Source: a virus
Taxonomy: Duplodnaviria > Caudoviricetes
Virus record (IMG/VR): IMGVR_UViG_3300021399_000099
Span: 32,001-96,000 of that record
Strand: one strand, 5' to 3'
DNA: 64,000 nt
Positions 274 through 17,268 of this stretch are shown here, piece by piece (the first letter of the stretch is position 1; each line of letters begins with the position of its first letter). Made by a program: the position numbers and the translations under genes. Under the pieces are notes generated by a model. It did not search any database. It had not been told where the DNA came from and saw nothing but the letters and a program-made list of their open reading frames with translations.

Positions 274-284
274 AAACGAAATGC

Positions 285-400: not shown

Positions 401-469
401 TTAACTTTAGCCCCGGAATTATTTTAATATACCCCGGTCTTGTGGCACGATTTTAGCATATAGTGTGGT

Positions 470-697
470 ATGAGCAGATATTACCATAGTTTTCCAAGGG
501 CTTACAAGAAACGCCCCATCTACACCGCCCTTTTTACCGAGGAGGACAAAGCCAAAATGGAGTACAACAAAAATATGAGTTTCCGCAAGTTCGTAGCCGA
601 GTGGAACGCAGATGCACCGGAGTTGCTGGGCTGGTCGTTACTTGATTTTTACAATGCCTTCAAAAAAGGTGGCGTGCAACTCGCATTTTCCTTTTAG
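470..697 (+). CDS. hypothetical protein
   Basis: ORF directly after promoter at 443. Confidence 0.7.
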   Translation: MSRYYHSFPRAYKKRPIYTALFTEEDKAKMEYNKNMSFRKFVAEWNADAPELLGWSLLDFYNAFKKGGVQLAFSF

Positions 698-737
698 TTT
701 GGCACGGAATATGCAATACTAATAGTGTAACCCCAAA

Positions 738-962
738 ATGAGCAACGAAATGAAATACATTGTCAATTCCCAAGACCACAAAGCAGTCAATCTCGCAAAC
801 GTTATAGGTATTTCCATATCCAACAACTACCTTATGTTGTCGCTGACCGATGGACGTGAAATGCGTTTCTTCTATGGCACTGAAAACGTGCTTAACGACC
901 TTTTCAGCCGGATTATGGACTTTATCGACGAGGACGGAACAAGTGTCCTTAACTGCAACTAA
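738..962 (+). CDS. hypothetical protein
   Basis: ORF after promoter at 700. Confidence 0.75.
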   Translation: MSNEMKYIVNSQDHKAVNLANVIGISISNNYLMLSLTDGREMRFFYGTENVLNDLFSRIMDFIDEDGTSVLNCN

Positions 963-991
963 ACTATTAAAACATTCTAAATCAGTTAATT

Positions 992-1465
992 ATGAAAAAG
1001 TTTTCCGTTACCATTGACCGCACAGTTCATCAAGCCCGTACCCTTACCATCAAGGCTGAAAACGAAGAACAAGCTTACGATGCCGCTGTGGATATTTCTG
1101 CTGAGGATGATGGTTGGGACGGTACGGAGTACGACACCACCTATGAAATCAAGTTGGAGGAAGTGCCCAACGACTACATTGACCGGGAGGGAAATCCCTA
1201 CGATGCGGACGATGACGAACACTGCTGGCCCGCTGGTGGTGGTCTGCATAAGGACTGCGAATACAACGCTGACGCCCTTTATGCCTACTATGTAGTTAAA
1301 GACCGCGATAAGATTTTCGCCTACCTCACCAACAAGTGTTTTTGGCTTGAAGATTGCCAGCGGGCGTTTGAGGTGTGGAGAAAGGGCAACACCAAAATCG
1401 TCTTTGAGAACTATGACACGCGTGCTGGACTTTGGGGCTATATGCACACCGAGTTAGACAAGTAG
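992..1465 (+). CDS. acidic hypothetical protein
   Basis: 157-aa ORF with A-rich leader. Confidence 0.8.
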   Translation: MKKFSVTIDRTVHQARTLTIKAENEEQAYDAAVDISAEDDGWDGTEYDTTYEIKLEEVPNDYIDREGNPYDADDDEHCWPAGGGLHKDCEYNADALYAYYVVKDRDKIFAYLTNKCFWLEDCQRAFEVWRKGNTKIVFENYDTRAGLWGYMHTELDK

Positions 1466-1557
1466 CGACCAGGCCGGGGTATATTAAAACAATCCCGGTC
1501 CCTCGCTTAAAAATCCGGAGCTGGAGTTTGGCACGCTTTTTGCAATAGTATAGAATG

Positions 1558-1684
1558 TAATGGGAAAGTTGAAAGTGGCGGAAAAGGCAGAGCCACGCAA
1601 AGGACGGATAAGGATTGACTAACTGCACCGAAAAGTAGTAGCGTAACACTCAGTAGGATAAACTTCAAACCCCGTCACCCATTT
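1558..1684 (+). ncRNA. candidate small structured RNA transcribed from promoter 1529
   Basis: No ORF. Ends pair (AATGGG/CCCATT, TTGAA/TTCAA); internal hairpin GTGGC/GCCAC with a D-loop-like GGAAAAGGCAGA. Confidence 0.3.
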
Positions 1685-1706
1685 TATTTATAAAAACACA
1701 AAGATT

Positions 1707-1910
1707 ATGACCCCAATTAAAATCATCAGTTCTATTTGTTTGGCTTTTTGCGTTGCCGGACTTCTCGTTGCCCTTATTGAAATTGTGATGAAGTTTGTTG
1801 GATTTATCGGTAAGTCAATAGCAAAAGAGCCGTGCAAGATAAGTATTGCCGGCGAACTTATTTTTGTTTTCATTTTTTCTTTCTTTATTGTGCTCTTTTT
1901 CATTATGTAG
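1707..1910 (+). CDS. small two-TM membrane protein
   Basis: Two hydrophobic segments; TAG overlaps next promoter. Confidence 0.7.
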   Translation: MTPIKIISSICLAFCVAGLLVALIEIVMKFVGFIGKSIAKEPCKISIAGELIFVFIFSFFIVLFFIM

Positions 1911-1949
1911 GCACGGGGTTTGCAATAGTATAGACAAAACACAAAGATT

Positions 1950-2129
1950 ATGAACCGCCATCAAATTGAAAACCTTATGCAGTCCCTCGCTATGTCGCAG
2001 GGCTTCTATGGCAGATTGCTTGACCAAATCTATTCCGCGCCCGAGGATGAGCAGGAAATGTTCTGGGAGAATATGGAAGCACAGAACTTCGGCTGTGACC
2101 TTGACGTTGTCCTCTTCCTTGAAAGTTAA
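1950..2129 (+). CDS. hypothetical protein, 59 aa (MNRHQIENLMQSLAMSQGFYGRLL...), absent from ORF track
   Basis: Hand-translated; follows promoter 1909. Confidence 0.75.
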   Translation: MNRHQIENLMQSLAMSQGFYGRLLDQIYSAPEDEQEMFWENMEAQNFGCDLDVVLFLES

Positions 2130-2150
2130 ACCAATAAAATATATCGCCAT

Positions 2151-2300
2151 ATGATTGCAACTATCATTATCGGTCTTGGTCTTTTCACCGCCACGCCCAA
2201 CATTCCAGCCACCAATGTCGCACCCAAACAGACCGCCATTGTCTTCGAGGACCAGCAGGCAATCTACAACATCCCTCCCAAGAAAAAGGGACGCAAGTAG
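2151..2300 (+). CDS. small protein, 49 aa, hydrophobic N-terminus
   Basis: Hand-translated MIATIIIGLGLFTATPN...KKGRK. Confidence 0.55.
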   Translation: MIATIIIGLGLFTATPNIPATNVAPKQTAIVFEDQQAIYNIPPKKKGRK

Positions 2301-2441
2301 TACGATGCTGGAGGGGGTATATTAAAAGTATGCCCCGCCCAATTTTAACGCAGACCCGATTTTTTTTTAATTTTTTCTCTTTAGCCGGATAGTGGCACAG
2401 GTTTTGCAATAGTATAGATGTAACCAAAAAACAATAAAGAT

Positions 2442-2669
2442 ATGAGACCTCTTTTCGAAATCGCCCGCGAAATCCGCAAGGACTGGAAGAATGTTTCCTA
2501 CTATGCCGCCCCCTACCTCAATGCTATGTCCTGTCTTAATAGCGTTGATGACAAGTACATTATGGACTCCGGTCGCTCCATTGTCGCCTATTTCCTCGCA
2601 AATGCCGGTTCTTGGCGTGGCGAGACCGCAAAACGCATCAAGGCAGAACTCAAGTCTATGGTCAAGTAA
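2442..2669 (+). CDS. phage hypothetical protein (IRKDW...PYL...FLANAGSWRGE)
   Basis: ORF after promoter 2393. Confidence 0.8.
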   Translation: MRPLFEIAREIRKDWKNVSYYAAPYLNAMSCLNSVDDKYIMDSGRSIVAYFLANAGSWRGETAKRIKAELKSMVK

Positions 2670-2728
2670 GTTTGGCACGCAATTTGCCTATAGTAGTACT
2701 GAAGTTTAACCATTAACCCCTTTTCGTT

Positions 2729-3037
2729 ATGAAGACCATCAAGAAATCTCTCCTTCTCCATCAGCTGGGTGCAGTCCAGTCCATCCGCAACCTCGTTTCC
2801 CCTCGTTCCTACCGCCCTGTCGCCAATCAGTTCGATGCGGTACATACCAACGGCATTTCATTTCAATCTTACAACTCGCTTATTGCGGTGCGTATGAACG
2901 GCTATCTCTACCTCACTGCTGACCACGACTACAGCAGAACCACCAGCAAATACTGCACCGAATGGACGGGTTTCTCCACGAAGGAACGCAGAGAGGGGCT
3001 GGAGTCCGGCAAGTTCATCGCAATCGTGGAGGACTAA
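2729..3037 (+). CDS. phage hypothetical protein (FQSYNS...DYSRTTSKY)
   Basis: ORF after promoter 2673. Confidence 0.8.
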   Translation: MKTIKKSLLLHQLGAVQSIRNLVSPRSYRPVANQFDAVHTNGISFQSYNSLIAVRMNGYLYLTADHDYSRTTSKYCTEWTGFSTKERREGLESGKFIAIVED

Positions 3038-3207
3038 GCCACAATGCCTGAAGACCCTGGGGGTATATTAAATGCTCCCAGGTCCTTGCGTTAAGCCCAG
3101 CTCCGGTTTGGCACGGATATTGCAATATCAAGTAATGGTACGCACTTGAGTACCTTTTGGCACGATAGTTGTTTATAGTATAGTGTAACCAATAAACAAT
3201 AAAGACA

Positions 3208-3525
3208 ATGAAAGGTTTTTACTACATTAAGAACTCCATTGACGAATTTCGCAGTGAGCCGAGTGTCTATGCTGAAACACTTGAAAAAGCAAAGGAAGCC
3301 ATCAAGTATTGTGCGGATTGGTATCTTTCGAATGGAACCGGCAGAATCTACTTTCAGCCGACAGAGTTTGAGGTGGTCGAATTGACCCAGGAGCCCAACC
3401 GATTTTTGGGTGAAACCGAGCCAGTCAAGTACAAACGCATCCGTCAGCCCAATGCGAAATTCATCTGCCGTGGAAAGGGGCTTGACGAGAACGGAGAGGT
3501 AATTTTCTCCGAGGAAGAATACTAA
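3208..3525 (+). CDS. hypothetical protein
   Basis: ORF after promoter 3158. Confidence 0.8.
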   Translation: MKGFYYIKNSIDEFRSEPSVYAETLEKAKEAIKYCADWYLSNGTGRIYFQPTEFEVVELTQEPNRFLGETEPVKYKRIRQPNAKFICRGKGLDENGEVIFSEEEY

Positions 3526-3574
3526 TGGCACGATAGTTGCAGTATAGATAGTGTAACCAACAAAGACAACGAGT

Positions 3575-3814
3575 ATGTATAGCAAGAAAGCAAAGATGAT
3601 GGTAGCCGAGCAGATTGTCGGTATGATTGAAAACAATGTGCTGAATGAGTGTAATATGGAGTCATTTATGGGCTGGCTTGAAAACGGAGATGCCTTCTAT
3701 GACGCCGATTGCTACACCGATGAGGAGATTGATGAGGCGATGGCTTTCGCATATCAAATCGCTGGTATTGTCGACACGCTTTCTTGGCATCTTGCGCCGG
3801 AAAGAGAGGACTGA
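3575..3814 (+). CDS. acidic hypothetical protein
   Basis: ORF after promoter 3526. Confidence 0.8.
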   Translation: MYSKKAKMMVAEQIVGMIENNVLNECNMESFMGWLENGDAFYDADCYTDEEIDEAMAFAYQIAGIVDTLSWHLAPERED

Positions 3815-3861
3815 TGGCACGATAGTTGCATATATCATAGTGTAACCAAAAATCAACGAGT

Positions 3862-4323
3862 ATGTACGGAGAAGAAAAAATCATCGGCAAGAAGGTCAAT
3901 CTCTTGGAGAAGGTTGGCATCTGCGATTGGAAGATGACTGATGAGGTTTGCGAAATCGTGTCGGTTGTTCCGTGGTCGCAGGAACTGAACGATTGGTGTC
4001 AGCACTATATCGTAAGAAAACCGGACGGAACCGAAGTTGAAGTCCGTGAGTGCGAGTGCGTGTTCTCCCCCAACACCGAAAAGCCTGCCGACTATATGGC
4101 ACACGACTTTCTCAATGACAATGGGGTGTGGGCAGATGTTTGGCATCACTACGGAACTTCCGCCCTTGTGGTCAGCATTGAGTGGGGGGATTGGCGTCAT
4201 TCCCATTTGTGGGCAAAGACCCTTATGGAATACCTCGGTTATGTCAAGGTAGGCGAGGTTGTTACGGAGGAAGACGGAAGTGATTGCTATTCAGCGGAAC
4301 ACTACTTCATTAAAGCGGTGTAA
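3862..4323 (+). CDS. hypothetical protein
   Basis: ORF after promoter 3815. Confidence 0.8.
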   Translation: MYGEEKIIGKKVNLLEKVGICDWKMTDEVCEIVSVVPWSQELNDWCQHYIVRKPDGTEVEVRECECVFSPNTEKPADYMAHDFLNDNGVWADVWHHYGTSALVVSIEWGDWRHSHLWAKTLMEYLGYVKVGEVVTEEDGSDCYSAEHYFIKAV

Positions 4324-4460
4324 ATACTTGAAGGTCTGGGAGTTATGGGGTTCTCCCGGGCCTCGAGTTAAGCCATCGCCCAGCATTATTTTAATATACC
4401 CCGGTCTTGTGGCACGATAGTTGCTTATAGTATAGTACAACCAAAAAAAAAACATCAGTT

Positions 4461-5198
4461 ATGAGAGAGAACGAATACCTTATCAACACCATTCAGGAAA
4501 TCACCTTGCAAGCCTACGCTTTCGGCATTTATGACTATTTCTCCAACGAAAGGGATATGTCAAGAACGCATATCTTCAAAATCTTCGTTGAGTGGGCAAA
4601 GGAGTTTGAGGAAACCCATAAAGACTTTGATTGGATGCAGGGTTCTTTCTATGACGAGGTGGATGATTTCCTCACGTGCCGTTTTGACTCAATCAAAATC
4701 GAAGACAAGGTTAGGGACGCTTTCCCCGGTGGCATCACCAAAGGTGACCACATTTCCTATGAGGGTGGCATTTTCAAAATCACCGGCTTCACTGAAAGTG
4801 GTATTTTGGTCAAGGAAATCGGCGGGACGCTTGATAGTGAGTGGGAAACAACCGAAATCGGGTTCTCACAAAACTACAAGGTGATAATCCTCCCGGACTA
4901 CGAGGAAGTTATGGACACCACCAATGGACACAACCCGGAACTTGTAGCGAAAATCAACAACGCTTGGAACGAAAAACGCGAGCAGTTCTTCCCCATTCTT
5001 TGTGCCCTTTACAAGAGGGACAATGACGAAATCCTTGCGAGCGATGCGTTTGCTGATTGGAAGAAAGTCAGCAAGGACTACGACACCCTTTACGAGTATA
5101 TGGAGGCGAATTGGGACATTGAGGCATACAACTACCTGCAACACATAGCGGACGATACCGACTTGGAGTGCATCCTCAACTACCTGCACGCTCAGTAA
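4461..5198 (+). CDS. hypothetical protein, 245 aa
   Basis: ORF after promoter 4410, flanked by inverted bipartite elements. Confidence 0.85.
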   Translation: MRENEYLINTIQEITLQAYAFGIYDYFSNERDMSRTHIFKIFVEWAKEFEETHKDFDWMQGSFYDEVDDFLTCRFDSIKIEDKVRDAFPGGITKGDHISYEGGIFKITGFTESGILVKEIGGTLDSEWETTEIGFSQNYKVIILPDYEEVMDTTNGHNPELVAKINNAWNEKREQFFPILCALYKRDNDEILASDAFADWKKVSKDYDTLYEYMEANWDIEAYNYLQHIADDTDLECILNYLHAQ

Positions 5199-5307
5199 AA
5201 GAAGTGCCCGGGGTATATTAAAACTATCCTGGGTCTTGCTTTAAGCCGCCTTGCAGTTTGGCACGATAGTTGCTTATAGTATAAGTGTAATCAAAAAACA
5301 ACAAGAT

Positions 5308-5544
5308 ATGGCAAAGAACACTCTCAAATGGCTTGAAACCGAATACTGCGGAAAAGCTGACACCACTATCCAACCAGTTCTCGTCAATGACATCCTTCTC
5401 TACACCCTCTTTGACAACAGGGGTTTCAATTACGTTTTCACAACCATCTATGCAATCCACCTTCATTTGTCGGGTTTTGTCAATCAGTACGAATTCACCT
5501 GCGGGAGTGAGGAGGATTTGATTGAATATCTTGAAAACTGCTAA
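5308..5544 (+). CDS. hypothetical protein
   Basis: Start moved to ATG 5308 downstream of promoter 5259. Confidence 0.75.
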   Translation: MAKNTLKWLETEYCGKADTTIQPVLVNDILLYTLFDNRGFNYVFTTIYAIHLHLSGFVNQYEFTCGSEEDLIEYLENC

Positions 5545-5556
5545 AAAGACAAGAAT

Positions 5557-5802
5557 ATGAAAATGTTTTACATTATTTCGTGTGACGACCTTTGGGAGTT
5601 CCTGGAAGATACCGAGTGCCCAAAGGAAATAATCGAAGACACTGATTTTGATAGTGTCAGCGACGAGCAATACAAGGAAGCTGTAAATGCCCAAGGGTGG
5701 ATTCTTCCGCTTGACCGCTTCGTGGAGGCATTTAACGAAGATAACGACCTCTGCCCCACGCCCTCATACCACTACATCAGGGTTTTTGACAAGGAAAGTT
5801 AA
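5557..5802 (+). CDS. acidic hypothetical protein
   Basis: ORF with A-rich leader. Confidence 0.75.
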   Translation: MKMFYIISCDDLWEFLEDTECPKEIIEDTDFDSVSDEQYKEAVNAQGWILPLDRFVEAFNEDNDLCPTPSYHYIRVFDKES

Positions 5803-5864
5803 AAACAACTAAGTTTGGCACGTATCTTGTAATATAAAGGGTGTAACCGATAAAGAAACAAGTT

Positions 5865-6176
5865 ATGACCGAAAAAGATTCCAACGCCACGTGGCAGAAT
5901 AAACTGATTGACGATATGACTGACGAAGAACTCCGGGAATTCAAAGACCACTGCTTTGACGAGTATGAGAAAACCGGGTTCATTGAAAAGTTCGATTCCC
6001 CGTATGACGATATCGGTGGGGGAGAGCACGAACACAACGGAATGACTTTCAAGGTTATCCGCAGAGCCACCACCGAGGAGGTCGATATCGAGGTTATGCC
6101 CGTGTGGCTTGTCGAGTTCGAGAACGGAGATACCGCTTATTGCTACCCGGAAGAAATCTGCAAATTAGAACACTGA
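5865..6176 (+). CDS. hypothetical protein
   Basis: ORF after promoter 5816. Confidence 0.8.
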   Translation: MTEKDSNATWQNKLIDDMTDEELREFKDHCFDEYEKTGFIEKFDSPYDDIGGGEHEHNGMTFKVIRRATTEEVDIEVMPVWLVEFENGDTAYCYPEEICKLEH

Positions 6177-6305
6177 GTTTTGTGCAACTGCCTTATTTCC
6201 AGGTGGTTGCACCATTTGTTAAGCCGGAGCCACCCAGCATTTTAATATACCCCCAGGAGTTTGGCACAGGATTTGCAATATAGTATAGTGAAACCAATAA
6301 AGACA

Positions 6306-7100
6306 ATGAATATGAACTCCACCGAAATCAAGACCCTCGCCACCAAGATGTTCAACACCACCAAGAAGAACCTCGCTGATGCCCGCAAGTACAACAAGGA
6401 CAACAAGACACGCAAGGCCCAGCAGGTCAATATTTCCGTATATGACCACGATTATTGGAAAGGCAACACCCGCACCACCGAATACTATGCCTTCAATGTA
6501 GATGGCAAGGAAATCGGTAAATGCACTTACCGGAGCGACATTGAAAGTGTGTTCCGTGAGTTTGGACATATGCTGGATGCACAAAAGAAAGTCAAGGGTT
6601 GGGGCGGACTGAACTACGCCAACGATAAAATCACGTTCAATGTTGGGACGTGGGGCGGCTATTCCGTCAAGTTTATCCCGAAGGTGTGCCTTGCAGATGC
6701 TCCTTGCAGTGAATACAAGTCGCTGATGAACTTTATCAACAAGCACGGCAAAACCACCTATTGGGGTTCGACCTATGGGGCAGTCAATCTTGACAACTAT
6801 GAACTTTTTTCCGCAGCTATGGGTGGCAAGAGGGGTGTCCTTTGGGACGAATATGGCGAGCGGGTTTTCATTGACAACAAGCCGAAGAAGTGTGCCCGTC
6901 TGCTTGAAGAACTCCGCAAGACAAGAGGGTCAAAGGACATTATGATTTGCGAGAGGGGCGAGGAGAACTACATTGACCCCGAGGATAGGACATACTCCGA
7001 AAAGTATGAGATTGAGTGCGAGGGCGAAAAGCACAAGTACCTGAAAATCACTATCAAGACCCCCACCGGAAAGGTCAAGTACGAAACCAAAATCTTTTAG
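6306..7100 (+). CDS. basic hypothetical protein
   Basis: Start moved to ATG downstream of promoter 6262. Confidence 0.8.
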   Translation: MNMNSTEIKTLATKMFNTTKKNLADARKYNKDNKTRKAQQVNISVYDHDYWKGNTRTTEYYAFNVDGKEIGKCTYRSDIESVFREFGHMLDAQKKVKGWGGLNYANDKITFNVGTWGGYSVKFIPKVCLADAPCSEYKSLMNFINKHGKTTYWGSTYGAVNLDNYELFSAAMGGKRGVLWDEYGERVFIDNKPKKCARLLEELRKTRGSKDIMICERGEENYIDPEDRTYSEKYEIECEGEKHKYLKITIKTPTGKVKYETKIF

Positions 7101-7104
7101 AGAT

Positions 7105-7263
7105 ATGAACCCGTTTGAAAAGGAAGAACTTGAAAGGGCGTTGAACAATCCATTAGTGGATGTGTATCATATGCTCCCGCACTACACCATTGAAACCTAT
7201 TCCACCGGACAAGATAAACGCAGGGCACGCAGAAAGCAGGAAAGGAAAAACAAAAAGAAATAA
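7105..7263 (+). CDS. hypothetical protein, 52 aa
   Basis: Hand-translated; fills gap up to promoter 7267. Confidence 0.55.
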   Translation: MNPFEKEELERALNNPLVDVYHMLPHYTIETYSTGQDKRRARRKQERKNKKK

Positions 7264-7314
7264 GTTTGGCACGTAGTTTGCAATATAGATAGTGTAACCA
7301 AAAACAATACTGAT

Positions 7315-7452
7315 ATGACAACTTACGAAGAAATGCACGTCCTTTTTGACGAACTTACCGAGGGAGAGCAGGTTGATATTATGGTTGATTTCTACTACAC
7401 TATGCGGGATTCGCAGAAAGACAAGTTCCTCCGCGAAACAGAAAATGCTTAA
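7315..7452 (+). CDS. hypothetical protein, 45 aa
   Basis: Hand-translated MTTYEEMHVLFDEL...; follows promoter 7267. Confidence 0.65.
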   Translation: MTTYEEMHVLFDELTEGEQVDIMVDFYYTMRDSQKDKFLRETENA

Positions 7453-7465
7453 AAACCAATAAGTT

Positions 7466-7888
7466 ATGGCATACATAGTTATTCAGTGGCCCGATATCCA
7501 GCACTATATGGACTTGCAAGGTTTTGAGGAAAACTCCTACCTCATTAACGATGAAAAGGGAATGAACGATTTTGGCAGTTCCGCCTACTTTGTAGATGAG
7601 GAATGGCTGAACGAACTCGACCCAATGGGCATAGTCGAAGGTGTCGTAGAAGATTGCCTGCACACCCTTGAAGATGGTGAGGAATACGAATTCGAAACTC
7701 CCATCGAACTCTCCAACAACCTTATCGCTACAAAGTTTTGGGCAGATGACGGAAACGAAGATGTCCGTGTGGAAGTTTGGCAGACCTACCCGGATAAATC
7801 GTGGCGAGATGATATGTTCCTTTCCTCTATGGAAACCAAAGACGCGATTAAGGTCGCCAAAGCGATTAACGCCTATTGGGATTGTTAA
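7466..7888 (+). CDS. hypothetical protein (YxxxxWPxxQxxM...FGxxxYFVxEE domain)
   Basis: N-terminal domain paralogous to 7915-8079. Confidence 0.8.
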   Translation: MAYIVIQWPDIQHYMDLQGFEENSYLINDEKGMNDFGSSAYFVDEEWLNELDPMGIVEGVVEDCLHTLEDGEEYEFETPIELSNNLIATKFWADDGNEDVRVEVWQTYPDKSWRDDMFLSSMETKDAIKVAKAINAYWDC

Positions 7889-7914
7889 GTTAAACCATTA
7901 AAAACTAAATAGTT

Positions 7915-8079
7915 ATGGGATATGTAAAAGTTATGTGGCCCGAAAGCCAGGCACTTATGTCACTCACTGACGAAGAAATGGAAGAGTACGGAATTGAGTT
8001 TGGCGAGGATTGCTCCTATTTCGTGCCGGAAGAGGATTACGAAGAGATTTTCAATCTTGCCGAATCGAAATTTGACTGA
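7915..8079 (+). CDS. 54-aa paralog of the N-terminal domain of 7466-7888
   Basis: Hand-translated MGYVKVMWPESQALM...FGEDCSYFVPEE. Confidence 0.7.
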   Translation: MGYVKVMWPESQALMSLTDEEMEEYGIEFGEDCSYFVPEEDYEEIFNLAESKFD

Positions 8080-8188
8080 ATGATGCTGGGCGGGGTATAT
8101 TAAAACACCACCGCCCTTCAAGCTAAACCCGCGTCAGTTTGGCACAAGATTTGCATATAGTATAGTGTAACCAAAAAACAACAAGATT

Positions 8189-8791: not shown

Positions 8792-8795
8792 TACT

Positions 8796-8927
8796 ATGAC
8801 TGTTTTAGAGCAAAGGTTTATGGAGCAAGTCCCACGCCTTTTGAGGGACGTTGCAAACGAAGTGGCTGAACTCCGCAAGGAGATTGCCGACTTGAAGGAA
8901 CAACTGAAAACCGCTAAAAGCGAGTAA
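8796..8927 (+). CDS. small coiled-coil protein, 43 aa
   Basis: Hand-translated MTVLEQRFMEQVPRLL...VAELRKEIADLKEQL. Confidence 0.65.
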   Translation: MTVLEQRFMEQVPRLLRDVANEVAELRKEIADLKEQLKTAKSE

Positions 8928-9044
8928 TCCAGCACCGGACGGGGGTATATTAAAATGCTCCCGTTCAATGCGTTAAGCCGACCTGGAGTTTGGCACGGCT
9001 TTTGCAATATAATACACTGAAACAACAAATAAAGACAATATCTT

Positions 9045-9257
9045 ATGAAAAAAGTATGGATTAGACTTGGCGGTGTGGTCACTACCGATGACAAAACAAT
9101 GGACGCTATCTTGTGTGGAGATACCAACGCACTCATTAAGGCCATCCACGAAAATGGCTTTGAGGTCAATGGAGAGAGTTATATCCCCGCTACTGACGAC
9201 ATTGAAAATGACGTAGAGTTTGACTTTGTTCCCACAACCTTGCTGATTGAAGAATAG
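9045..9257 (+). CDS. hypothetical protein
   Basis: ORF after promoter 8991. Confidence 0.75.
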   Translation: MKKVWIRLGGVVTTDDKTMDAILCGDTNALIKAIHENGFEVNGESYIPATDDIENDVEFDFVPTTLLIEE

Positions 9258-9451
9258 TACAACCATAAAAATTAAAACTATGTTTGAAGCTGTTACGTTT
9301 GGGGATATTATCCTTGACCTTTGTGTTGTGGCATTTCTTTTCGCCATCGTTTCCTGCTGGGCATACATTTTTTCTCCGGAAAACAAGGATGATGAATAGT
9401 CCGGCATGCATTTTGCTTATAGTATAGTGTAACCAATAAAACGAAAAAGAT

Positions 9452-9757
9452 ATGAACTTCGCTGACAAACTCCGTAACGAACTGAACAACAAGAATGAGG
9501 AAATCATCGCACGCGACATTGAACCGCGTAAGGACAAAATTATGGAAGTCCTTGCAAGGGGCATCAAGCGACTTGGCTATGTGAAAACGGATACCCTCTG
9601 TAACACCGGAACTTGTGAGGGTAGCGAGCTGGGCGTCAATTCCGGCAACATTGAGGCCTTCGCTGATTTTCTCAAAAAAGAGGGGTTCCGCGTGCAGAAA
9701 GCTTGGTGGGGTTATTCCTCTGACGGAAGACCGGATATGCTGACCATAACCCTTTAA
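9452..9757 (+). CDS. hypothetical protein
   Basis: ORF after promoter 9402. Confidence 0.8.
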   Translation: MNFADKLRNELNNKNEEIIARDIEPRKDKIMEVLARGIKRLGYVKTDTLCNTGTCEGSELGVNSGNIEAFADFLKKEGFRVQKAWWGYSSDGRPDMLTITL

Positions 9758-9810
9758 GGTTTGGCACACCTTTTGCAATATAAAGAGTATAACCCCAAAA
9801 AGCAAAAAAT

Positions 9811-10512
9811 ATGCAACCTACTATCTCACAAATGAAAACTTGGTTCAATGAGTTCAACGCAAAAGTGTTTGACGGAAAACTTCCCATTGTTCCAATCAAG
9901 TTCAACAATACCTATCGCCAACTTGGTCAGTTCTATTGGGGGGTGCGTGGTATTGGCATCAAAATCTCCCTTTTCTACGACCGCACCGAAGAGCAGTACC
10001 GCAACTGCCTGCTCCACGAAATGTGCCATCTCTATTGCTACAATCAAGGGTGGAGAAATGAGCACCACGGACATCGTTGGCAGGCAATAGCCGACAAGGC
10101 ATACCGCATTACCGGACTTTATATCCAACGCACCGAAGACGCAAAGGGCTGGAAACCCGCAAGCGGTAACGCCCAAAAGTACAAGGCGGTAAAGGAAAAA
10201 AGAACCGCCCCCGCTATCCTCGTGGATTTGGATTGTGGTAAATACCATTTCATCGTAAAGACCACGAAAAAGGTTATTTGGGATGCGTGTGACGGAAACG
10301 CAATCAAGGATAGCCGTGTTTGTGGTGTGTATATCAGCGACAACAAGAGGGTGCTTTCTTGGCAGAATAGCCGTTCTCTGCATCGCGGGTACAAGTTCGA
10401 CAAGTGGGAATATGAGCACGATATCGCTCCTATGCTGGAAAAGGCGATGAAAGTGGATAATCTTCGCAAACTCTGTTTTTGGGGTGAGTACGACTGCCTT
10501 GGGGTTCGGTAG
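9811..10512 (+). CDS. SprT-like zinc metalloprotease
   Basis: FNEFN..VFDGKLP, LGQF, LLHEMCH...HGHRWQ (HExxH plus downstream His). Confidence 0.8.
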   Translation: MQPTISQMKTWFNEFNAKVFDGKLPIVPIKFNNTYRQLGQFYWGVRGIGIKISLFYDRTEEQYRNCLLHEMCHLYCYNQGWRNEHHGHRWQAIADKAYRITGLYIQRTEDAKGWKPASGNAQKYKAVKEKRTAPAILVDLDCGKYHFIVKTTKKVIWDACDGNAIKDSRVCGVYISDNKRVLSWQNSRSLHRGYKFDKWEYEHDIAPMLEKAMKVDNLRKLCFWGEYDCLGVR

Positions 10513-10642
10513 TTGTCATTGTGGGTCAGGAGTACGCCCTGACCCCTTTCGTTAAGCCCGGGAGCTCCAGCATTTTAATATACCCCGCAAGTTTGGCACG
10601 GAATATGCATATAGTATAGTGTAACCCCAAAATGACAAAGAT

Positions 10643-11077
10643 ATGACAAAGACCTACGAAGCCAACTGGCACAACCCGGAAACCGGAATCGACATCATCG
10701 TAGCCCGCGGAAGCAAGGACTATGTAACGAAGTGTGCCCAAATGAGCCAGTTCGTACCCTTTACAATCAGGGAGTACCAGACACCTGAAGATATCCGGAC
10801 TGACTACCGGGAATGGCGTAAGGAAAACCAGAACCGCAAGCCTAACCGGGTAATCGTAAAGATGCACTGGGAAGATGATGAGAATACCGAAAAGGGCTAC
10901 CAGATTGGCACTATCGGCATTATCCCCCAGAGCAAGATTGGCAACACCGAAAACATTCCCGGCGATGCCCTTATCCTCTACTATGTATCCAGTCTCGAGG
11001 AACTCATTGGACTGATGAAACCCGGCAACGGAAGTGATTTCATTGTCGATGAAGTGCTGGAGTTCTATAAAGCATAG
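10643..11077 (+). CDS. hypothetical protein
   Basis: ORF after promoter 10594. Confidence 0.8.
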   Translation: MTKTYEANWHNPETGIDIIVARGSKDYVTKCAQMSQFVPFTIREYQTPEDIRTDYREWRKENQNRKPNRVIVKMHWEDDENTEKGYQIGTIGIIPQSKIGNTENIPGDALILYYVSSLEELIGLMKPGNGSDFIVDEVLEFYKA

Positions 11078-11151
11078 CATTGGTACGCACTTGAGTACCT
11101 TTTGGCACGGATATTGCTTATAGTATAGTATAACTAACAAAGGCAAGAAAT

Positions 11152-11511
11152 ATGAAAACTGCACAAGACATTATCAACATCGCAAGGGGAGCACTCATTA
11201 CCCATATCACTACACTTGTAAGGAAGATTGACGGATACCTTGAGTCCGGAAGCAAGCGGCTTATGACCGACCCCGGAGAGAGTGCGGTGCTGGACTTTGT
11301 GGAGTGTGCTTATGTCCCGACCATTACCGTTGAGGTGGATTATCCATGCCTTGAGGAGGTGCGTACCCTTGACTTTATTGCCACAAGCGGTGAGCACAAC
11401 TTCTATGTTGGTGCGGGCGAGAACACCGATATAAATGCTGATGACCTTTCCACGGACGAACTCGTTGTCATCGCCAAGTGCCTTGAAAAAACTTATGGCG
11501 GGATGGAGTAG
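11152..11511 (+). CDS. hypothetical protein
   Basis: ORF after promoter 11103. Confidence 0.8.
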   Translation: MKTAQDIINIARGALITHITTLVRKIDGYLESGSKRLMTDPGESAVLDFVECAYVPTITVEVDYPCLEEVRTLDFIATSGEHNFYVGAGENTDINADDLSTDELVVIAKCLEKTYGGME

Positions 11512-11563
11512 TTTGGCATAGAACTTGCTTATAGTATAGTATAACCAATAAAAACCCAAGATT

Positions 11564-11896
11564 ATGACCGAGAATACCAAAATCGCTATGCAGGCAATCA
11601 ACAAGTGGTTCTACTATGCTATGAACTATCGTATGGTAGAGGTTGAGGTTGCCGACTTTGACGGAAACCACAAGGAGTATCTGCCGGACTTTTTCAACGC
11701 GTTCCCTATGCACCTGCGTAAGCACCTTGCCGGAAAGTGGAACTACGGCTACGAAACCTACGGCTCACGTGCTGCCCTTATGTGGTTCTATGGCGAACTC
11801 TCTTCCAACTATCGCAAAGACCTTATATTGTGGGTGTTGGAGAACTACAATGACGAGTTGAAACTTTCTTTCAAGGAGGAGGACTATTATGAGTAA
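11564..11896 (+). CDS. hypothetical protein
   Basis: ORF after promoter 11514. Confidence 0.8.
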   Translation: MTENTKIAMQAINKWFYYAMNYRMVEVEVADFDGNHKEYLPDFFNAFPMHLRKHLAGKWNYGYETYGSRAALMWFYGELSSNYRKDLILWVLENYNDELKLSFKEEDYYE

Positions 11897-12008
11897 GTGC
11901 CTGGGGGTCAATGACTTCCGGGCTTGTTTAACTCCAGCCACAAGATTATTTTAATATACCCCCCGGAGTTTGGCACACGATTTGCAATATAAGAGTAAAA
12001 CAACGATT

Positions 12009-12272
12009 ATGGAAAAATGCATCACAAAAGGGTTATGGTATGCCTGCACGAAGGATTATGAAAAACTTGGTGCTAAATTCACCGCTGGGAAACTCTATAA
12101 GTGTAACGAGCACCGGGTATTGTGCGATGACCACAATGCGCCGAAAGTCTGTCTTGAAGGCCTCGGCATTTTCCGCAAGGCAACGAAGGAAGAAGTGAAA
12201 GAACATTGGGCGAAGGAACGGAGAAAGAAGAAAGAACTTTTATTGCGTTCCAAAGGCGTTTATTTAGTTTAA
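12009..12272 (+). CDS. basic hypothetical protein
   Basis: Start moved to ATG after promoter 11971. Confidence 0.7.
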   Translation: MEKCITKGLWYACTKDYEKLGAKFTAGKLYKCNEHRVLCDDHNAPKVCLEGLGIFRKATKEEVKEHWAKERRKKKELLLRSKGVYLV

Positions 12273-12326
12273 ACTTTTTGGCACACCTTTTGCAATATCT
12301 ATACTGAAACCAAAAATGCACGAGTT

Positions 12327-12581
12327 ATGACAAAGAAAGAAATCATCAACAAGATTTTCCACCGCCTTTCCGCAAATGCCGGATATGAGGTCTATGTGCC
12401 CAGCTTGCAGAACAAACTCCGCAACGGAAGATGGGGTTTGCACGCCTATTGTATCACGATTGACGATGGCTTTATCGTGTGCCGTCCGTGGGCAGGTGCT
12501 GAAGAGAGTTGGCTCGCCCGGCTTGACCGACTGACAAAGTTCGAGCTCGAGTATATATTGGAAAAATGCCCGGAACTTTAA
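12327..12581 (+). CDS. hypothetical protein
   Basis: ORF after promoter 12279. Confidence 0.75.
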   Translation: MTKKEIINKIFHRLSANAGYEVYVPSLQNKLRNGRWGLHAYCITIDDGFIVCRPWAGAEESWLARLDRLTKFELEYILEKCPEL

Positions 12582-12634
12582 GTTTGGCATAGAACTTGCT
12601 TATAGTATAGTATAACCAATAAAAACAAAAGGAT

Positions 12635-13042
12635 ATGAACACCTCCAATGATTTCCGCAAGACCCTCAGCATTGTCCGCCACGAGATTTTCGATTCCATC
12701 CGTTCCATTATGGAAAAACTGGGCGGCAAGGTATGTTTCCGTATTTACCACGAAAACGACATCATTGACTTTCGCTATACCTTTTTTGAGGTAGATGGCG
12801 ATGGCTACGGACGCGAGCTGTTCCTTGATACAGCAGTGCAGACCCCCGATGGCGACATCACCATTATGCTCCACGATACGGAGGATTCCTATGAACCTAT
12901 GTGGGAATTGGCGGATATGACCACGACCGATGCCCTCTATATGCTGGAAGAGCTGGAGCAAATTGCAGAGTTTCACGCACAATACCCCGACAAGCCAGTT
13001 CTTACCGAGTACAAAGCAGATTTTGATTGGGAGAACTATTAG
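12635..13042 (+). CDS. hypothetical protein
   Basis: ORF after promoter 12585. Confidence 0.8.
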   Translation: MNTSNDFRKTLSIVRHEIFDSIRSIMEKLGGKVCFRIYHENDIIDFRYTFFEVDGDGYGRELFLDTAVQTPDGDITIMLHDTEDSYEPMWELADMTTTDALYMLEELEQIAEFHAQYPDKPVLTEYKADFDWENY

Positions 13043-13085
13043 TCCGGCACGGGTTTTGCAATATAACAAGTAAAACGATAGCACT

Positions 13086-13538
13086 ATGGAATACAAAGTT
13101 GAATGTGACCTTGACCAATTTAATGCTTGGTCCGGCGGAAAAGACACCCTTGACGTCCTTAAAGAAAAGGGTGTATGCGATGAGGTTCAGTTCTTTATTG
13201 AGGAACTATTCTGCGACGAAATCCCCACGGAAACCGCTATCAACGATTTCCTTTGGTTTGAGCGCGATGCTATTGCCCAGCACCTTGGATACGATGATTG
13301 GGACGAGTTTGAGCACGGGGACGAGAACGAGGAGGAAACCTATAAGGACATCAACGGGGTGGAACTTGCCGTCAGCGATGAGGTTAAATGGCACGATGAA
13401 GCCGGATATGACGAGGACGGCTCTATGATTACCTTTACTATTGTGGAGGAAAGAGGGGACGGCTACTTCAATCTTGCCACCGAGGACGAGGACAATCCTG
13501 AAAGGTGGGCATACTACACTGAACTTGAAATTGTATAA
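13086..13538 (+). CDS. highly acidic phage protein (FNAWSGG...INDFLWFE)
   Basis: ORF after promoter 13045; strongly D/E-rich. Confidence 0.8.
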   Translation: MEYKVECDLDQFNAWSGGKDTLDVLKEKGVCDEVQFFIEELFCDEIPTETAINDFLWFERDAIAQHLGYDDWDEFEHGDENEEETYKDINGVELAVSDEVKWHDEAGYDEDGSMITFTIVEERGDGYFNLATEDEDNPERWAYYTELEIV

Positions 13539-13541
13539 GAT

Positions 13542-13769
13542 ATGAACACACACAACGATTGGGAGAACTTGCTCCGCATCTCCAACGAGAACTTGGAAAA
13601 GACCGGATATTCCTTGCTTATTACCGAGGATGAGGACGGCTACTATACCTGCGAGATTCGTAAAGACGGCGAACTTGTGGAAACCTACGCCGAGAACTTC
13701 TATGAGAACGAACTGAGCGACCTTATCATAGAAGCCCACCACCACGTTCTCACCACTTTGGCACGATAG
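13542..13769 (+). CDS. hypothetical protein
   Basis: ORF whose 3' end runs through promoter 13759. Confidence 0.7.
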   Translation: MNTHNDWENLLRISNENLEKTGYSLLITEDEDGYYTCEIRKDGELVETYAENFYENELSDLIIEAHHHVLTTLAR

Positions 13770-13808
13770 TTGCTTATAGTATAGTGTAACCCTAAAAAAG
13801 AAAGAAAT

Positions 13809-14018
13809 ATGAAAGCAGGTTTTGTAAGAGAGATTTACCTCCGTTCCACCCCCTCCATTGACCTTGACCTTGTCACAGAGCAGGTTGATTGCTGCCAGCA
13901 CACTATCCCTATGAGTGTCTATGACGAACTCGTTGCCGAATACTGCGAGAGTGACGATGACAAAATGTCCGCGAATATGTTTATGCTGGTGTCCGGACCT
14001 CAACTCGTCCAGGGCTAA
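13809..14018 (+). CDS. hypothetical protein
   Basis: ORF after promoter 13759. Confidence 0.7.
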   Translation: MKAGFVREIYLRSTPSIDLDLVTEQVDCCQHTIPMSVYDELVAEYCESDDDKMSANMFMLVSGPQLVQG

Positions 14019-14152
14019 AAGCAAGACAAACACCTGGTAGCCAATGAGTTACCAGGTTTCGCTAAGTCCGGACCTGGAGCTATTTTAATATACCCCCGAA
14101 GTTTGGCACACATATTGCATATACTATAGCGTAACCCTAAAAAATTGTTATT

Positions 14153-14839
14153 ATGAAAATGAATATTGAACTCCCCTTCTTCCCCGGTTTTTATGAAACA
14201 AGCCTCGAGAACAGCGACACCACTTACTGCGCTATCAAGGAAGAACTGGACTATTACCGGAAGGACTGCGACACCCCCTGCAAGGAACTCACTGAAGACG
14301 ACCTTGACTTCGATTCTGAGAATTACGAGAAGGACGTGCGTGAAAACTGGGCTGCAGCTTGGAAAGACCACGCCCCGGAAATCGTGCTCTCTCTCGAGAA
14401 TGTTACTATGTGGTCGCCCCGTTACTACAACTTTGACCATGACCGCCTTTATGCAGATATTGAACTTGCCGATAACTGGCAGGACGAAATGCGTCACTTT
14501 ATGGCTTTGAACTATGACTGGCTCAAAGACCGCATCCACGAGGACTGGACTTCCTATGACGGATTTATGTCCTTTATGAGCAACGACATTGACGAGTGGG
14601 GGGATTACCTCTTTGAAAAACTGGACTGCCGTTATATCTCCACGATGCTCGGCTATATGATGCGTGTTGAGAACAAGGACATTTTTGACGACCTTATTAT
14701 GGCTGCCCTTGACGACATTTATGAAGGTATGTATGTGGTTCTTACCGAAGAAGGAGAAGAGAAGGTGAAGAAGGGCATTGAAGATGGCTCAATCAAGGTT
14801 TATGACCCTGACCAGCTCACCATTAACTTCCCGGAATAA
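14153..14839 (+). CDS. acidic phage protein (PFFPGFYET...SPRYYNF.HD...SYDGFMSF)
   Basis: ORF after promoter 14104, flanked by inverted bipartite elements. Confidence 0.85.
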   Translation: MKMNIELPFFPGFYETSLENSDTTYCAIKEELDYYRKDCDTPCKELTEDDLDFDSENYEKDVRENWAAAWKDHAPEIVLSLENVTMWSPRYYNFDHDRLYADIELADNWQDEMRHFMALNYDWLKDRIHEDWTSYDGFMSFMSNDIDEWGDYLFEKLDCRYISTMLGYMMRVENKDIFDDLIMAALDDIYEGMYVVLTEEGEEKVKKGIEDGSIKVYDPDQLTINFPE

Positions 14840-14936
14840 GCTGCAGGGCGGGGGTATATTAAAGTGACTCCCGCCCTTGAGTTAAGCCGCTGGGACTTTG
14901 GCACGCTTATTGCAATAATAAAGAAAAAACAAGATT

Positions 14937-15293
14937 ATGAAAGAGATTTACCTTAACGGAAAAGACGCCTGCATTGACGCTGATTTCTTTGTAGGACTTG
15001 GTGCCGACCGGGACACCATCGTTGTTTCACCGGAGCGTATCAAAAATCTGCACTACATCAAGTTCCAGCTGGATGGTTGTGGCTATACTGCACATTGGTC
15101 TGATTTCAACAACCGCCTGACCATCAAGTGCAACGACCTGGAGCTCAAGGACGGGGAAGTCGCGGACAATCGTCTTTATGCGTTAAGCAAGAAAATCACC
15201 CCGGATATGTTCGGTGACCTGGTTGTGAGGAAAATCGTTGCCTGGCCTGAAGGTGATATGCCGGAACTTATGATAATCCTTTACGAGAAATAA
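14937..15293 (+). CDS. hypothetical protein
   Basis: ORF after promoter 14899. Confidence 0.8.
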   Translation: MKEIYLNGKDACIDADFFVGLGADRDTIVVSPERIKNLHYIKFQLDGCGYTAHWSDFNNRLTIKCNDLELKDGEVADNRLYALSKKITPDMFGDLVVRKIVAWPEGDMPELMIILYEK

Positions 15294-15358
15294 ACTTTGG
15301 CATACCATTTGCAATATAACAAGTACAACACAAGTTCAACCTTTAAATCCAATTAGTT

Positions 15359-15640
15359 ATGATGAATTTCGACCAAGTAAATGACAAGATTACAAAGAAT
15401 GGTTTCCGGAGGCACGCAGGAACGCGGACGAACTATATCGAGGAAACCAACACCACCCAGAAAGTGTATGACTATGAGCACCGGAAGAAGTTGGATATGT
15501 TTTCCGTATATACCAATGAGTTCGGTTCGGTTGAATACATCGAATATACGAAGGTGGATTTCAACCCGGAAACACGCAAGTACGCCCAAAAAGTAACCAT
15601 CATCAACAATCTTGCCGACCTCAACAAGATTTTGGGTTAG
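15359..15640 (+). CDS. hypothetical protein
   Basis: ORF after promoter 15298. Confidence 0.8.
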   Translation: MMNFDQVNDKITKNGFRRHAGTRTNYIEETNTTQKVYDYEHRKKLDMFSVYTNEFGSVEYIEYTKVDFNPETRKYAQKVTIINNLADLNKILG

Positions 15641-15691
15641 TTTGGCACGCGATTTGCAATATAGTAAGTATAACCAAAAAACAACAAGAAT

Positions 15692-16489
15692 ATGAGCCAT
15701 TTTATTGGATTGGTCTTTCTGCGACCTGATGCAGACCTTGAAGAAACCCTCGCCCCCTTCAACGAACAGGATGAACTCTACATGCAGTTCGTTGATAAGA
15801 CGGACGAGGTAAAGGAGCAGTGGGACAAGACACCGGAAACCTGCCCCAGCGAAGGCACTTTCATCGAGGAGATTGACCGCACCGACCTTATCAACGAGAT
15901 TTGGGACGAAGCGGCTGATACCCTTCCTCCGGAAAAAAAGGACGGCTTTTGGACACCTTACACGAAGGACAAGTATCCCACGCCTACCGACATAGCAAAG
16001 GACAAGGAATATGAGGTAGTGCCGGACGATACCAAGAGGGACGGGGTTCGTTTCGTTCAAAAGGCGGAACGCGAGTGGAAGTATGAGCCGAGCAAGGAAA
16101 AGTTCCCCACGATTGACAAACTTGCAAAGGAGTATTTCGGCTACCGCAAGGTCAATGGTCGCTACGGCTATATGAGCAATCCCAATGCCAAATACGATTG
16201 GTACAGCGAGGGCGGCAGGTGGAGTGGCTATCTTACCAACAAGGAGGGAAAGACCACTGACGTTGAACTGCTGACCGAGGTGGATTGGGACAAGACTGAC
16301 ACGCCTTTCTGCTTTGTCAATGCCAATGGCGAGTGGATTGAGAGGGGCGAAATGGGCTGGTGGGCTATGGTGTCCAATGAAAAGCCGCAAGCGAATTGGG
16401 ATGCCGAGTTCAAGGCGTATGTTCAGTCCCTGCTTGCTGAGCCGGATGCCAACGAGATTGAGGTCTATGCGATTGACTATCATATCTAA
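15692..16489 (+). CDS. phage hypothetical protein (MSHF...NPNAKYDWY..GGRW...GEMGWW...DYHI)
   Basis: ORF after promoter 15643. Confidence 0.85.
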   Translation: MSHFIGLVFLRPDADLEETLAPFNEQDELYMQFVDKTDEVKEQWDKTPETCPSEGTFIEEIDRTDLINEIWDEAADTLPPEKKDGFWTPYTKDKYPTPTDIAKDKEYEVVPDDTKRDGVRFVQKAEREWKYEPSKEKFPTIDKLAKEYFGYRKVNGRYGYMSNPNAKYDWYSEGGRWSGYLTNKEGKTTDVELLTEVDWDKTDTPFCFVNANGEWIERGEMGWWAMVSNEKPQANWDAEFKAYVQSLLAEPDANEIEVYAIDYHI

Positions 16490-16656
16490 CTCTTTCTAAC
16501 TGAATGACTTGGCTGGGCGGATTTAAAGTATCCGTTCAGCTGGGTTTTTAACGCCCGCCCTGGAGAAGTTTTAATATACCCCTACAAAAATATTTCAACA
16601 AAAACAAATCTGGCACGTGTTTTGCATAACTATGCCTGTAACCAATTAATTGCATT

Positions 16657-17196: not shown

Positions 17197-17268
17197 CCAT
17201 ATATGGTACGCACTTGAGTACCTTTTTGGCACGATAGTTGTATATAGTAAGCAAAAACCAATAAAGAT

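Follow-up and report, generated by a model that had tools for sequence, protein, structure and literature searches.

An orientation-independent box-N17-TTAA element at terminator-promoter junctions of early genes in a family of giant rumen phages

The box among the early genes

The window, as the whole stretch of DNA analysed here is called, comprises 64,000 bp (bases 32001-96000) of the 216,910-bp IMG/VR record IMGVR_UViG_3300021399_000099, which belongs to the Caudoviricetes and was judged to be 61% complete. Between positions 401 and 16582 of the window, junctions between early genes repeatedly carry a bipartite DNA element composed of a 14-bp box, GGGGTATATTAAAA, a 17-bp spacer and the tetranucleotide TTAA. 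This box-N17-TTAA element is real and strongly conserved, and in a family of giant phages from the rumen it is characteristic of the junctions at which the terminator of one early gene meets the promoter of the next.

All real genes of the box region in the window lie on the plus strand, as indicated by the excess of substitutions at third codon positions in comparison with relatives. Minus-strand frames at 986-1447, 9826-10419, 13206-14033 and 15353-16483 (up to 376 aa) were rejected as shadows of plus-strand genes, since their substitutions peak at the first codon position; at 15353-16483, a naive gene caller would choose the wrong strand. When 30 early-region proteins were tested, 27 had no Pfam family above the cut-off, and the domain matches were WYL_2, SprT-like and a sub-threshold Bro-N. 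The only early-region proteins with Pfam families are a WYL_2-domain protein of 200 aa (8189-8791) and an SprT-like protein of 233 aa (9811-10512).

Fourteen boxes were found at positions 422-16582, 12 of them exact and two with an altered last base. Dinucleotide shuffles yield 0.8 matches at equal tolerance, against 15 observed, which rules out a chance origin. The positions and the order of reverse (R) and forward (F) copies reported in the first-pass annotation, R F F F R F R F F R R R F R, were all reproduced, as was the fixed distance of 17 bp between the AAAA end of the box and TTAA (12 copies) or CTAA on the plus strand (two copies, one of which reads TTAG in box orientation); in all 14, the sequence of the spacer is free. 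That annotation had the copies stop after 16582. No convincing one follows within the window, but the scan of the whole record gave a total of 19, with five more boxes just upstream of the window (genome 27072-31513), each with a 17-bp spacer. All 19 are located within genome positions 27072-48582, that is, in 21.5 kb of 217 kb, and the rest of the record contains no further convincing box. Every one of them has TTAA, TTAG or CTAA at a distance of exactly 17 bp from its AAAA end; when the copies are compared in box orientation, the spacer and both flanks show no conservation. The site, which amounts to about 35 bits of information, has neither dyad symmetry nor a direct-repeat structure. A degenerate box, GGGGGATGTTAAAA, with two mismatches and without TTAA at 17 bp, occurs at 52797-52810, in the terminator loop behind a sigma70-family gene (52842-53705, minus strand); the next sigma54-type promoter of that strand lies about 20 bp downstream of this box.

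In forward copies (plus strand), the order in the direction of the genes is box, spacer and TTAA. These are element 2 at 1476-1510, with the box (1476-1489) inside the loop of a terminator hairpin and TTAA at 1507-1510; element 3 at 2314-2348, whose promoter lies 65 bp past the box, beyond an AT-rich insert; element 4 at 3060-3094, with T as the last base of the box; element 6 at 5210-5244, where the gene end, box, spacer and TTAA are kept in relatives and the sequence differs thereafter; element 8 at 8092-8126, in which CTAA replaces TTAA; element 9 at 8942-8976; and element 13 at 14851-14885, with G as the last base of the box. The reverse copies (minus strand) begin with element 1 at 401-435 (TTAA at 401-404, a 17-bp spacer and the box at 422-435), which has a separate terminator hairpin upstream and a variant sigma54-type promoter 7 bp downstream, and include elements 5 (4368-4402), 7 (6219-6253), 10 (10552-10586), 11 (11928-11962), 12 (14062-14096) and 14 (16548-16582). 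Element 12 has CTAA on the plus strand, and its orthologous copy in two relatives has a mismatch in the box together with TTAC. Element 14, which is the final copy in the genome, has its promoter 28 bp off. The genes at 4461-5198 and 14153-14839 had been described as bracketed by inverted pairs of the element; however, there are four adjacent R-F pairs, compared with 3.5 expected in a random order of seven R and seven F, and the bracketing does not stand out from such an order.

Conservation and restriction to one lineage

A search of JGI/ENA metagenome contigs for the box pattern returned at least 120 stretches. Among the matches listed, 82 related contigs (338 kb), which contain the sigma54-type promoters of the phage and align to the window's region at 66-98% identity, were used to compare box regions. 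Together with the genome, they provided 240 unique box contexts, 223 of which were classified by promoter and orientation; the 52 boxes that deviate from the exact search pattern by one mismatch, and so could not have been selected by it, constitute an unbiased subset. Public runs were read as assembled contigs, and junction joints with short sides at repeated motifs were excluded from the evidence; the sole joint kept from these runs connects 1496 to 6260, where the intervening letters rebuild the 17-bp spacer and TTAA. The matching runs are gut or rumen metagenomes of cattle, goat and sheep from nine studies, and the lineage is common in the gut metagenomes of these ruminants.

TTAA is found at exactly 17 bp in 205 of the 240 contexts; most of the others have TTAG, CTAA or GTAA at 17 bp, and TTAA at 16 or 18 bp accounts for about 4%. 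Overall, the spacer measures 17 bp in about 92% of contexts, so that the fixed geometry, which the first-pass annotation had put forward for scrutiny across the genome and its relatives, holds there as well. The boxes with one mismatch keep TTAA at 17 bp in 43 of 52 cases, and variation of the tetranucleotide is limited to YTAR. Across 41 orthologous, non-identical junction pairs, identity is 97% in the box, 92% in the tetranucleotide, 82% in the flanks and 56% in the spacer; between copies, spacer identity is only 34%. Where orthologous junctions were located via their flanks, either the box is intact or the entire module is missing. One lineage (L156 and L158) has an orthologous copy in which both parts, box and TTAA, have decayed.

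At the DNA level, GenBank phages contain neither the box pattern nor close relatives of this phage. Other IMG/VR phages gave three single matches, one within a coding repeat and the remaining two, isolated and lacking sigma54-type promoters, in the same stretch. Across 185,579 prokaryote species, each represented by one genome, there were 23 scattered single matches in unrelated taxa, by which a host element or prophage signature is ruled out. Neither the box nor any loop motif analogous to it occurs in a distant relative, G001 (IMG/VR 3300022654_000841), although promoter type and leader are shared. In G001 (loci L084-L087; 30-60% protein identity), the promoter and A-rich leader are as in the box phage, a hairpin, GGTACTCAAAAGAGTACC, is conserved at several junctions, and a second promoter-like motif, TTTGGCAT-N5-TTTG, overlaps TATATTTG, the Bacteroidota -7 pattern. 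No Rfam-type RNA family matched positions 1-18000 of the window at E values up to 0.1, and nothing relevant to the box sequence or to phages driven by sigma54 turned up in the literature searched. Because the box pattern is confined to one lineage, its reader is likely to be phage-specific.

Terminators, promoters and mosaicism at the junctions

About 65 promoters of the form TTTGGCACG-N4-TTGC(A/T) are distributed across the genome, most densely in the box region. Their conserved core, TGGCACG-N4-TTGC(A/T), corresponds to the sigma54 pattern and not to a sigma70-type early promoter. The consensus reaches upstream as (C/T)GGAG-TT(T)GGCAC (for example, at 1521-1528, 6254-6261 and 8983-8990), with GGAG conserved in both junction classes as well as at many box-less promoters. 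Early-region sigma54-type promoters (1528-13785; for example, 3157-3184, 6261-6289 and 8139-8166) also fit TTGGCA-N16/17-TATAGT with 10 of 12 matches. This reading is confined to the early-region copies, and later-region promoters do not keep the spacing; it may be that the early promoters have a dual nature or that the conserved ATATAGTATAG behind TTGC serves a different purpose. A box-less type of junction, at 3137-3154 on the plus strand, consists of a conserved short hairpin, GGTAC-N8-GTACC, with a T-run into a sigma54-type promoter. The hairpin reads GGTACGCACTTGAGTACC (or GGGACTCAATTGAGTACC) at 3137-3154, 11082-11099 and 17205-17222, with variants near 18092 and 20010; its T-run merges into TTTGGCAC, and this type of junction takes over where the boxes end.

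The 223 classified contexts comprise 124 forward, 80 reverse and 19 promoter-less ones. In the forward class, the box is located in the loop of a strong hairpin, the 5′ arm of which ends in the GGGG of the box and the 3′ arm of which lies within the spacer; GGGG is paired in 93% of these contexts, and the mean hairpin energy is -19.4 kcal/mol. In the reverse class, GGGG is paired in 53% and no hairpin encloses the box, and a separate hairpin, ending a few bases before TTAA, is located across TTAA from the box in 87% (mean z -4.2). The hairpin assigned to these junctions in the first-pass annotation is therefore accurate for forward boxes, which do sit in its loop, but reverse junctions use a different hairpin, beyond TTAA. 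In both classes, the order in gene direction is hairpin, a short T-rich stretch (TTTCG or TTTG), TTAA and often GCC. TTAA thus forms the last four bases of the T-rich tail of the upstream terminator in both orientations, with the box 17 bp upstream (forward) or downstream (reverse) of it. From TTAA to TGGCAC there are 13-16 bp at forward junctions, and from the box to TGGCAC 6-10 bp at most reverse junctions; for the window, the earlier figures from box to TGGCAC of 34-39 bp (one 65) for forward copies and 7-8 bp (one 28) for reverse copies were correct.

The box had also been said to flip around the axis of TTAA. The two orientations are real, but they are explained by packing and not by inversion of DNA: the apparent flip arises because the junctions are tightly packed and the palindromic TTAA serves as the terminator tail as well as, probably, the second contact of the reader. 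Inversion in place was ruled out, as the sequence to the left of TTAA in reverse junctions is a terminator and not a reversed promoter. Box pairs closer than 150 bp and box-TTAA-box composites were not found among the contexts, and each junction has one copy.

The module is linked to the terminator more closely than to the promoter. A sigma54-type promoter lies within about 50 bp in 204 of the 223 contexts, and the 19 others have none nearby; the copy at genome 27072 is located between convergent genes, next to a hairpin/terminator and without a promoter. In contig L137, a 73-bp insert (hairpin, box, spacer and TTAA) lies between a stop codon and a promoter that are common to the window's genome, which lacks the insert at genome position 41757 and retains both of these. 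The module as a whole, from terminator to TTAA, can be either present or absent, and it associates with the terminator rather than with the promoter. Within the box region, 20 sigma54-type promoters have no box and follow directly after a stop codon or after the GGTAC-N8-GTACC hairpin, and about 45 elsewhere in the genome are box-less as well. Box orientation is discordant in 0 of 154 pairs with a common upstream gene versus 9 of 124 pairs with a common downstream gene. In strain X2, the gene ending at 1465, together with its forward-type box, is joined to the promoter at 6262, which is preceded in the window by the reverse-type element 7. That orientation follows the upstream gene is sufficiently explained by the position of the longest common homology, the promoter, to the right of the element.

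Sigma54 promoters require an activator, and enhancers act in either orientation. The box might accordingly be an enhancer or upstream activating site, at which a bound activator would switch on the adjacent sigma54-type promoter, as well as the other promoters of the operon by looping, and would give the box-bearing region its early timing. The promoters near 204 contexts would agree with this explanation, and so would the reverse-type gaps to TGGCAC, which are in phase with the helix (6-10, 17-19 and 28-29 bp). Between the reverse-type box and the promoter, L118, L141, L119 5212 and L148 contain one or two copies of an 11-bp unit, (T/G)ACAAGTACCC, which shifts the position of the box by full turns of the helix, to gaps of 18-19 and 29 bp. 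Promoter-proximal palindromes in an unrelated phage group with dense sigma54-type promoters (L032 1-13551, L046 and L060; 3300036770_006768, 3300034073_004006 and 3300035670_000546) show that such sites exist in phages. Each promoter of that group is preceded by two palindromes, CTGCCATTTTGGCAG, about 13 bp apart and ending about 10 bp before TGGCAC, and the pair is a candidate promoter-proximal activator site.

However, the phasing derives from about four independent junction families, one of them created by the 11-bp tandem unit, and forward-type gaps are unphased. About 65 promoters are confronted with 19 boxes, certain boxes lack a promoter, and the module can disappear from a junction whose promoter persists. 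The site is also not a dyad or repeat. The phage record contains no enhancer-binding ATPase with sigma54 interaction; the sole Sigma54_activat match, a two-ring AAA+ protein of 878 aa encoded outside the window (genome 5106-7742; L013 718-3354), is a ClpB-like chaperone and not an activator. A sigma54 DNA-binding domain likewise had no match in the 217 kb. The enhancer, one of the options of the first-pass annotation, retains the orientation independence and the nearby promoters in its favour, but it is weakened by box-less promoters, promoter-less boxes and the missing ATPase, and we consider it unlikely.

Orientation also bears on another of these options, a promoter for one of the two sigma70-family factors encoded by the phage, each of which has regions 1.2, 2 and 4. 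Read from TTAA to the box, TTAA would start the -35 element, followed by an 18-bp spacer, TAATAT as the -10 element, a T-run as the extended -10 element and CCCC as the discriminator. Reverse-type copies would provide a second, later promoter of the downstream operon, and forward-type copies antisense shut-off of the upstream early operon; operon boundaries are logical places for both. The geometry fits well, because a pair of elements at a fixed distance, with a deviation of one base pair in about 4% of copies, is a classic promoter signature, and a high information content is usual for phage-specific promoters. Sigma regions 3.0, 2 and 1.2 contact positions -17 to -4, and the 14 invariant bases match this stretch, which one sigma factor could contact. 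The explanation fails, however, on orientation: 56% of copies would point against the genes (124 forward versus 80 reverse, with genes on one strand), and two genes would have converging copies at their flanks. Furthermore, the element is restricted to one region of 21.5 kb in 217 kb, whereas a sigma regulon should include later genes, the putative -35 element has only four conserved bases, and the -10 element matches at four of six. Such a promoter is therefore quite improbable.

The closest known kind of element is the promoter-early stem-loop (PeSL) regulatory cassette of T4-type phages (PMC2839356, PMC4122927), which consists of a promoter, an AT-rich region and a GGGG...CCCC stem-loop and undergoes recombination in the loop, the AT-rich region and the promoter (PMC2839356). 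The junctions described here resemble PeSL cassettes in being small intergenic composites in which a terminator stem-loop, in many cases GGGG...CCCC, is joined by AT-rich sequence and a strong early promoter, in bordering small orphan genes in hyperplastic regions where indels and replacements between relatives break inside the cassettes, and in falling into several subclasses according to the position of the stem-loop relative to the promoter. Hairpins occur at every junction type and lead directly into TGGCAC-N5-TTGC promoters. The junctions differ from PeSL cassettes in that the promoter is of the sigma54 (-24/-12) type, whereas that of PeSL is of the sigma70 type, in that the core is the 14-bp box with the exact 17-bp spacer and TTAA in both orientations, and in that it is the stems that vary while the loop stays constant.

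The box region is strongly mosaic among strains, with shuffled gene order and with presence or absence of genes, the breaks being located at junctions. Some close relatives have the gene end, box, spacer and TTAA in common and diverge directly past TTAA; other pairs are identical from the first G of the box rightwards, and many breaks occur within the promoter itself. Mosaicism is also seen at a fine scale within junctions. Two junctions of L137 (1330-1345 and 3181-3196) share AAAAAAAACGA right after TTAA, which suggests that a short segment was copied between them directly at TTAA. Over all contigs, the 19 box junctions account for 22 clusters of synteny breaks and the 20 box-less promoter junctions for 21, with 20 more clusters located elsewhere. 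Because breaks are equally frequent at box-less junctions, shuffling belongs to all junctions, as it does in PeSL cassettes.

The first-pass annotation had proposed crossover at TTAA by a recombinase or transposase, to be judged by whether breakpoints fall there. Given that box-less promoter junctions break as often as box junctions and that there is no composite site, no clean target duplication when the 73-bp module of L137 is compared with the empty site, and no match to a tyrosine or serine recombinase (Phage_integrase, Resolvase) in the 217 kb of a record that is 61% complete, this proposal is not supported. Several mobile or repeated elements were likewise rejected. A transposon or miniature inverted-repeat transposable element (MITE) would be at odds with the lack of YTAR upstream of modules, of target duplication, of composite ends and of terminal repeats. 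Reading GTTAAGC as an integron attC site would require an inverse core (RYYYAAC) partner, which is missing, and the hairpin leaves GTTAAGC out. REP/BIME or MITE-like repeats do not have variable stems and spacers with only the loop box fixed, and no Rfam match was obtained. There is little to support a recombinase with crossover at TTAA, a transposon or MITE, an invertible segment or a passive repeat.

The same breaks may also be considered in relation to a nuclease, nickase or recombinase of the ruler type. Sites of ruler homing endonucleases such as I-TevI are usually single and are cut in alleles without the endonuclease gene. At box-N17-TTAA, such an enzyme would bind the box and cut TTAA 17 bp off, and the breaks would seed cassette shuffling. 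The long specific site, the short motif at a fixed distance, the unconserved spacer and the restriction of the tetranucleotide to YTAR are all reminiscent of I-TevI. The explanation may also draw on the relatives that diverge directly past TTAA, on the pairs identical from the first G of the box, on the high mosaicism among strains, and on one GIY-YIG and one HNH reading frame in the genome. However, these two frames are located at 173 kb and 175 kb of the genome, 125 kb from the boxes, among tRNA genes, where homing endonucleases are common, and nothing ties them to the box. Unlike an I-TevI site, the element is present in 19 copies in the phage's own genome, all at terminators and with no adjoining nuclease gene, and 19 double-strand cut sites of its own would demand protection of the phage. 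Breaks are as frequent at box-less promoter junctions, many of them in the promoter; two-sided sites, tyrosine or serine recombinases and a target duplication at the empty site are missing; and the identity of TTAA as a terminator tail would be left unexplained. A cutting enzyme of this kind is likewise quite improbable.

Alternatively, the box could be a passive homology patch or selfish mini-repeat: no protein would read it, and gene conversion would maintain the similarity of what is only the conserved core of PeSL-like cassettes. PeSL cassettes recombine within their own motifs (PMC2839356), and the junctions here are mosaic at a fine scale. Conversion, however, would also homogenise the spacer, which has the low identities given above both between copies and between orthologues, and an exact distance of 17 bp to a conserved TTAA is useless for homology. 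Variable stems with a fixed loop are the reverse of REP- or MITE-like repeats, and terminal repeats and duplications are missing. A patch without a reader is consequently very improbable.

A possible reader of the element

Considering these features together, box-N17-TTAA is possibly the docking site of one sequence-specific DNA-binding protein that acts at operon boundaries, a reading to which we assign a probability of roughly 35%. The anatomy of the element, its conservation, its association with terminators and its independence of orientation have been demonstrated; that a protein binds, which one it is and how it acts are inferred. The 35-bp unit of box, free spacer and TTAA would dock one double-strand DNA-binding protein, probably encoded by the phage, with one surface reading the box and with the TTAA of the terminator tail read two helical turns away. 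The unit belongs to a single class of tightly packed terminator-promoter junctions in the earliest part of the genome, which is rich in orphan genes. With the box 17 bp on either side of a palindromic TTAA, an upstream box would be forced into the terminator loop and a downstream box would be placed against the next promoter.

RNA polymerase that is releasing its RNA covers roughly 17-20 bp to each side. Given this footprint around TTAA, a protein on the box would abut the polymerase, presumably as a block in front of it at reverse-type junctions or directly behind it at forward-type junctions. Such a boundary factor could determine, for every boundary between early operons, how much transcription terminates, continues or starts anew. 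The suggestion in the first-pass annotation that one factor reads the box and touches TTAA two turns away is thus partly supported, in that it fits the invariant length and variable sequence of the spacer, the orientation independence and the single copy per junction.

Several points weigh against a docking protein. Fourteen contiguous invariant bases and four more exceed by far the information that a regulator would need for about 20 sites and are more typical of polymerase promoters or nucleases, and most regulator sites, unlike this one, are dyads or direct repeats. Contact with the polymerase gives a clear role to reverse-type copies only, and a role behind the polymerase is speculative. 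No candidate for a box-binding protein was found among the 30 early-region proteins, and the HU/IHF family had no match in the 217 kb, with only 61% of the genome in hand. The inheritance of orientation in the 154 and 124 pairs and the joint in strain X2 are given little weight, and they are not independent support.

A more general possibility, which we regard as somewhat unlikely, is that the element is a molecular ruler, on which a phage protein held by the box acts on whatever sits at TTAA. Three versions may be envisaged, and this estimate covers them jointly. In the first, termination would be protein-assisted and orientation-free, as a phage counterpart of roadblocks of the Reb1/TTF-I (RNA polymerase I) or mTERF kind, in which the bound protein and a T-rich release element are separated by a short, constant distance and which, in the case of mTERF, are bidirectional. 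These systems differ from the present one in being eukaryotic or mitochondrial and in serving other polymerases, whereas here there is an RNA hairpin terminator as well, and half of the copies would be behind the polymerase and not in front of it. In the second version, a programmed nick at TTAA would load a tracking activator for the box-less sigma54-type promoters, which resembles the nick-loaded sliding clamp of T4 late transcription. In the third, orientation would encode fate, with a phage sigma factor starting sense transcripts at reverse-type copies and antisense shut-off at forward-type copies.

Unusually, most genes of this phage lineage seem to be transcribed from sigma54-type promoters, and the junctions of the lineage indicate that PeSL-like cassettes exist with another promoter type in a phage group unrelated to the T4-type phages. 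Within this lineage, box-N17-TTAA is the most strongly conserved non-coding feature of the earliest genes. As a compact, orientation-free DNA module of high specificity, it may be of use for engineering. Its reader could be a new kind of boundary or termination factor, whose identification would reveal how dozens of very small early operons are arranged and timed in a giant phage.

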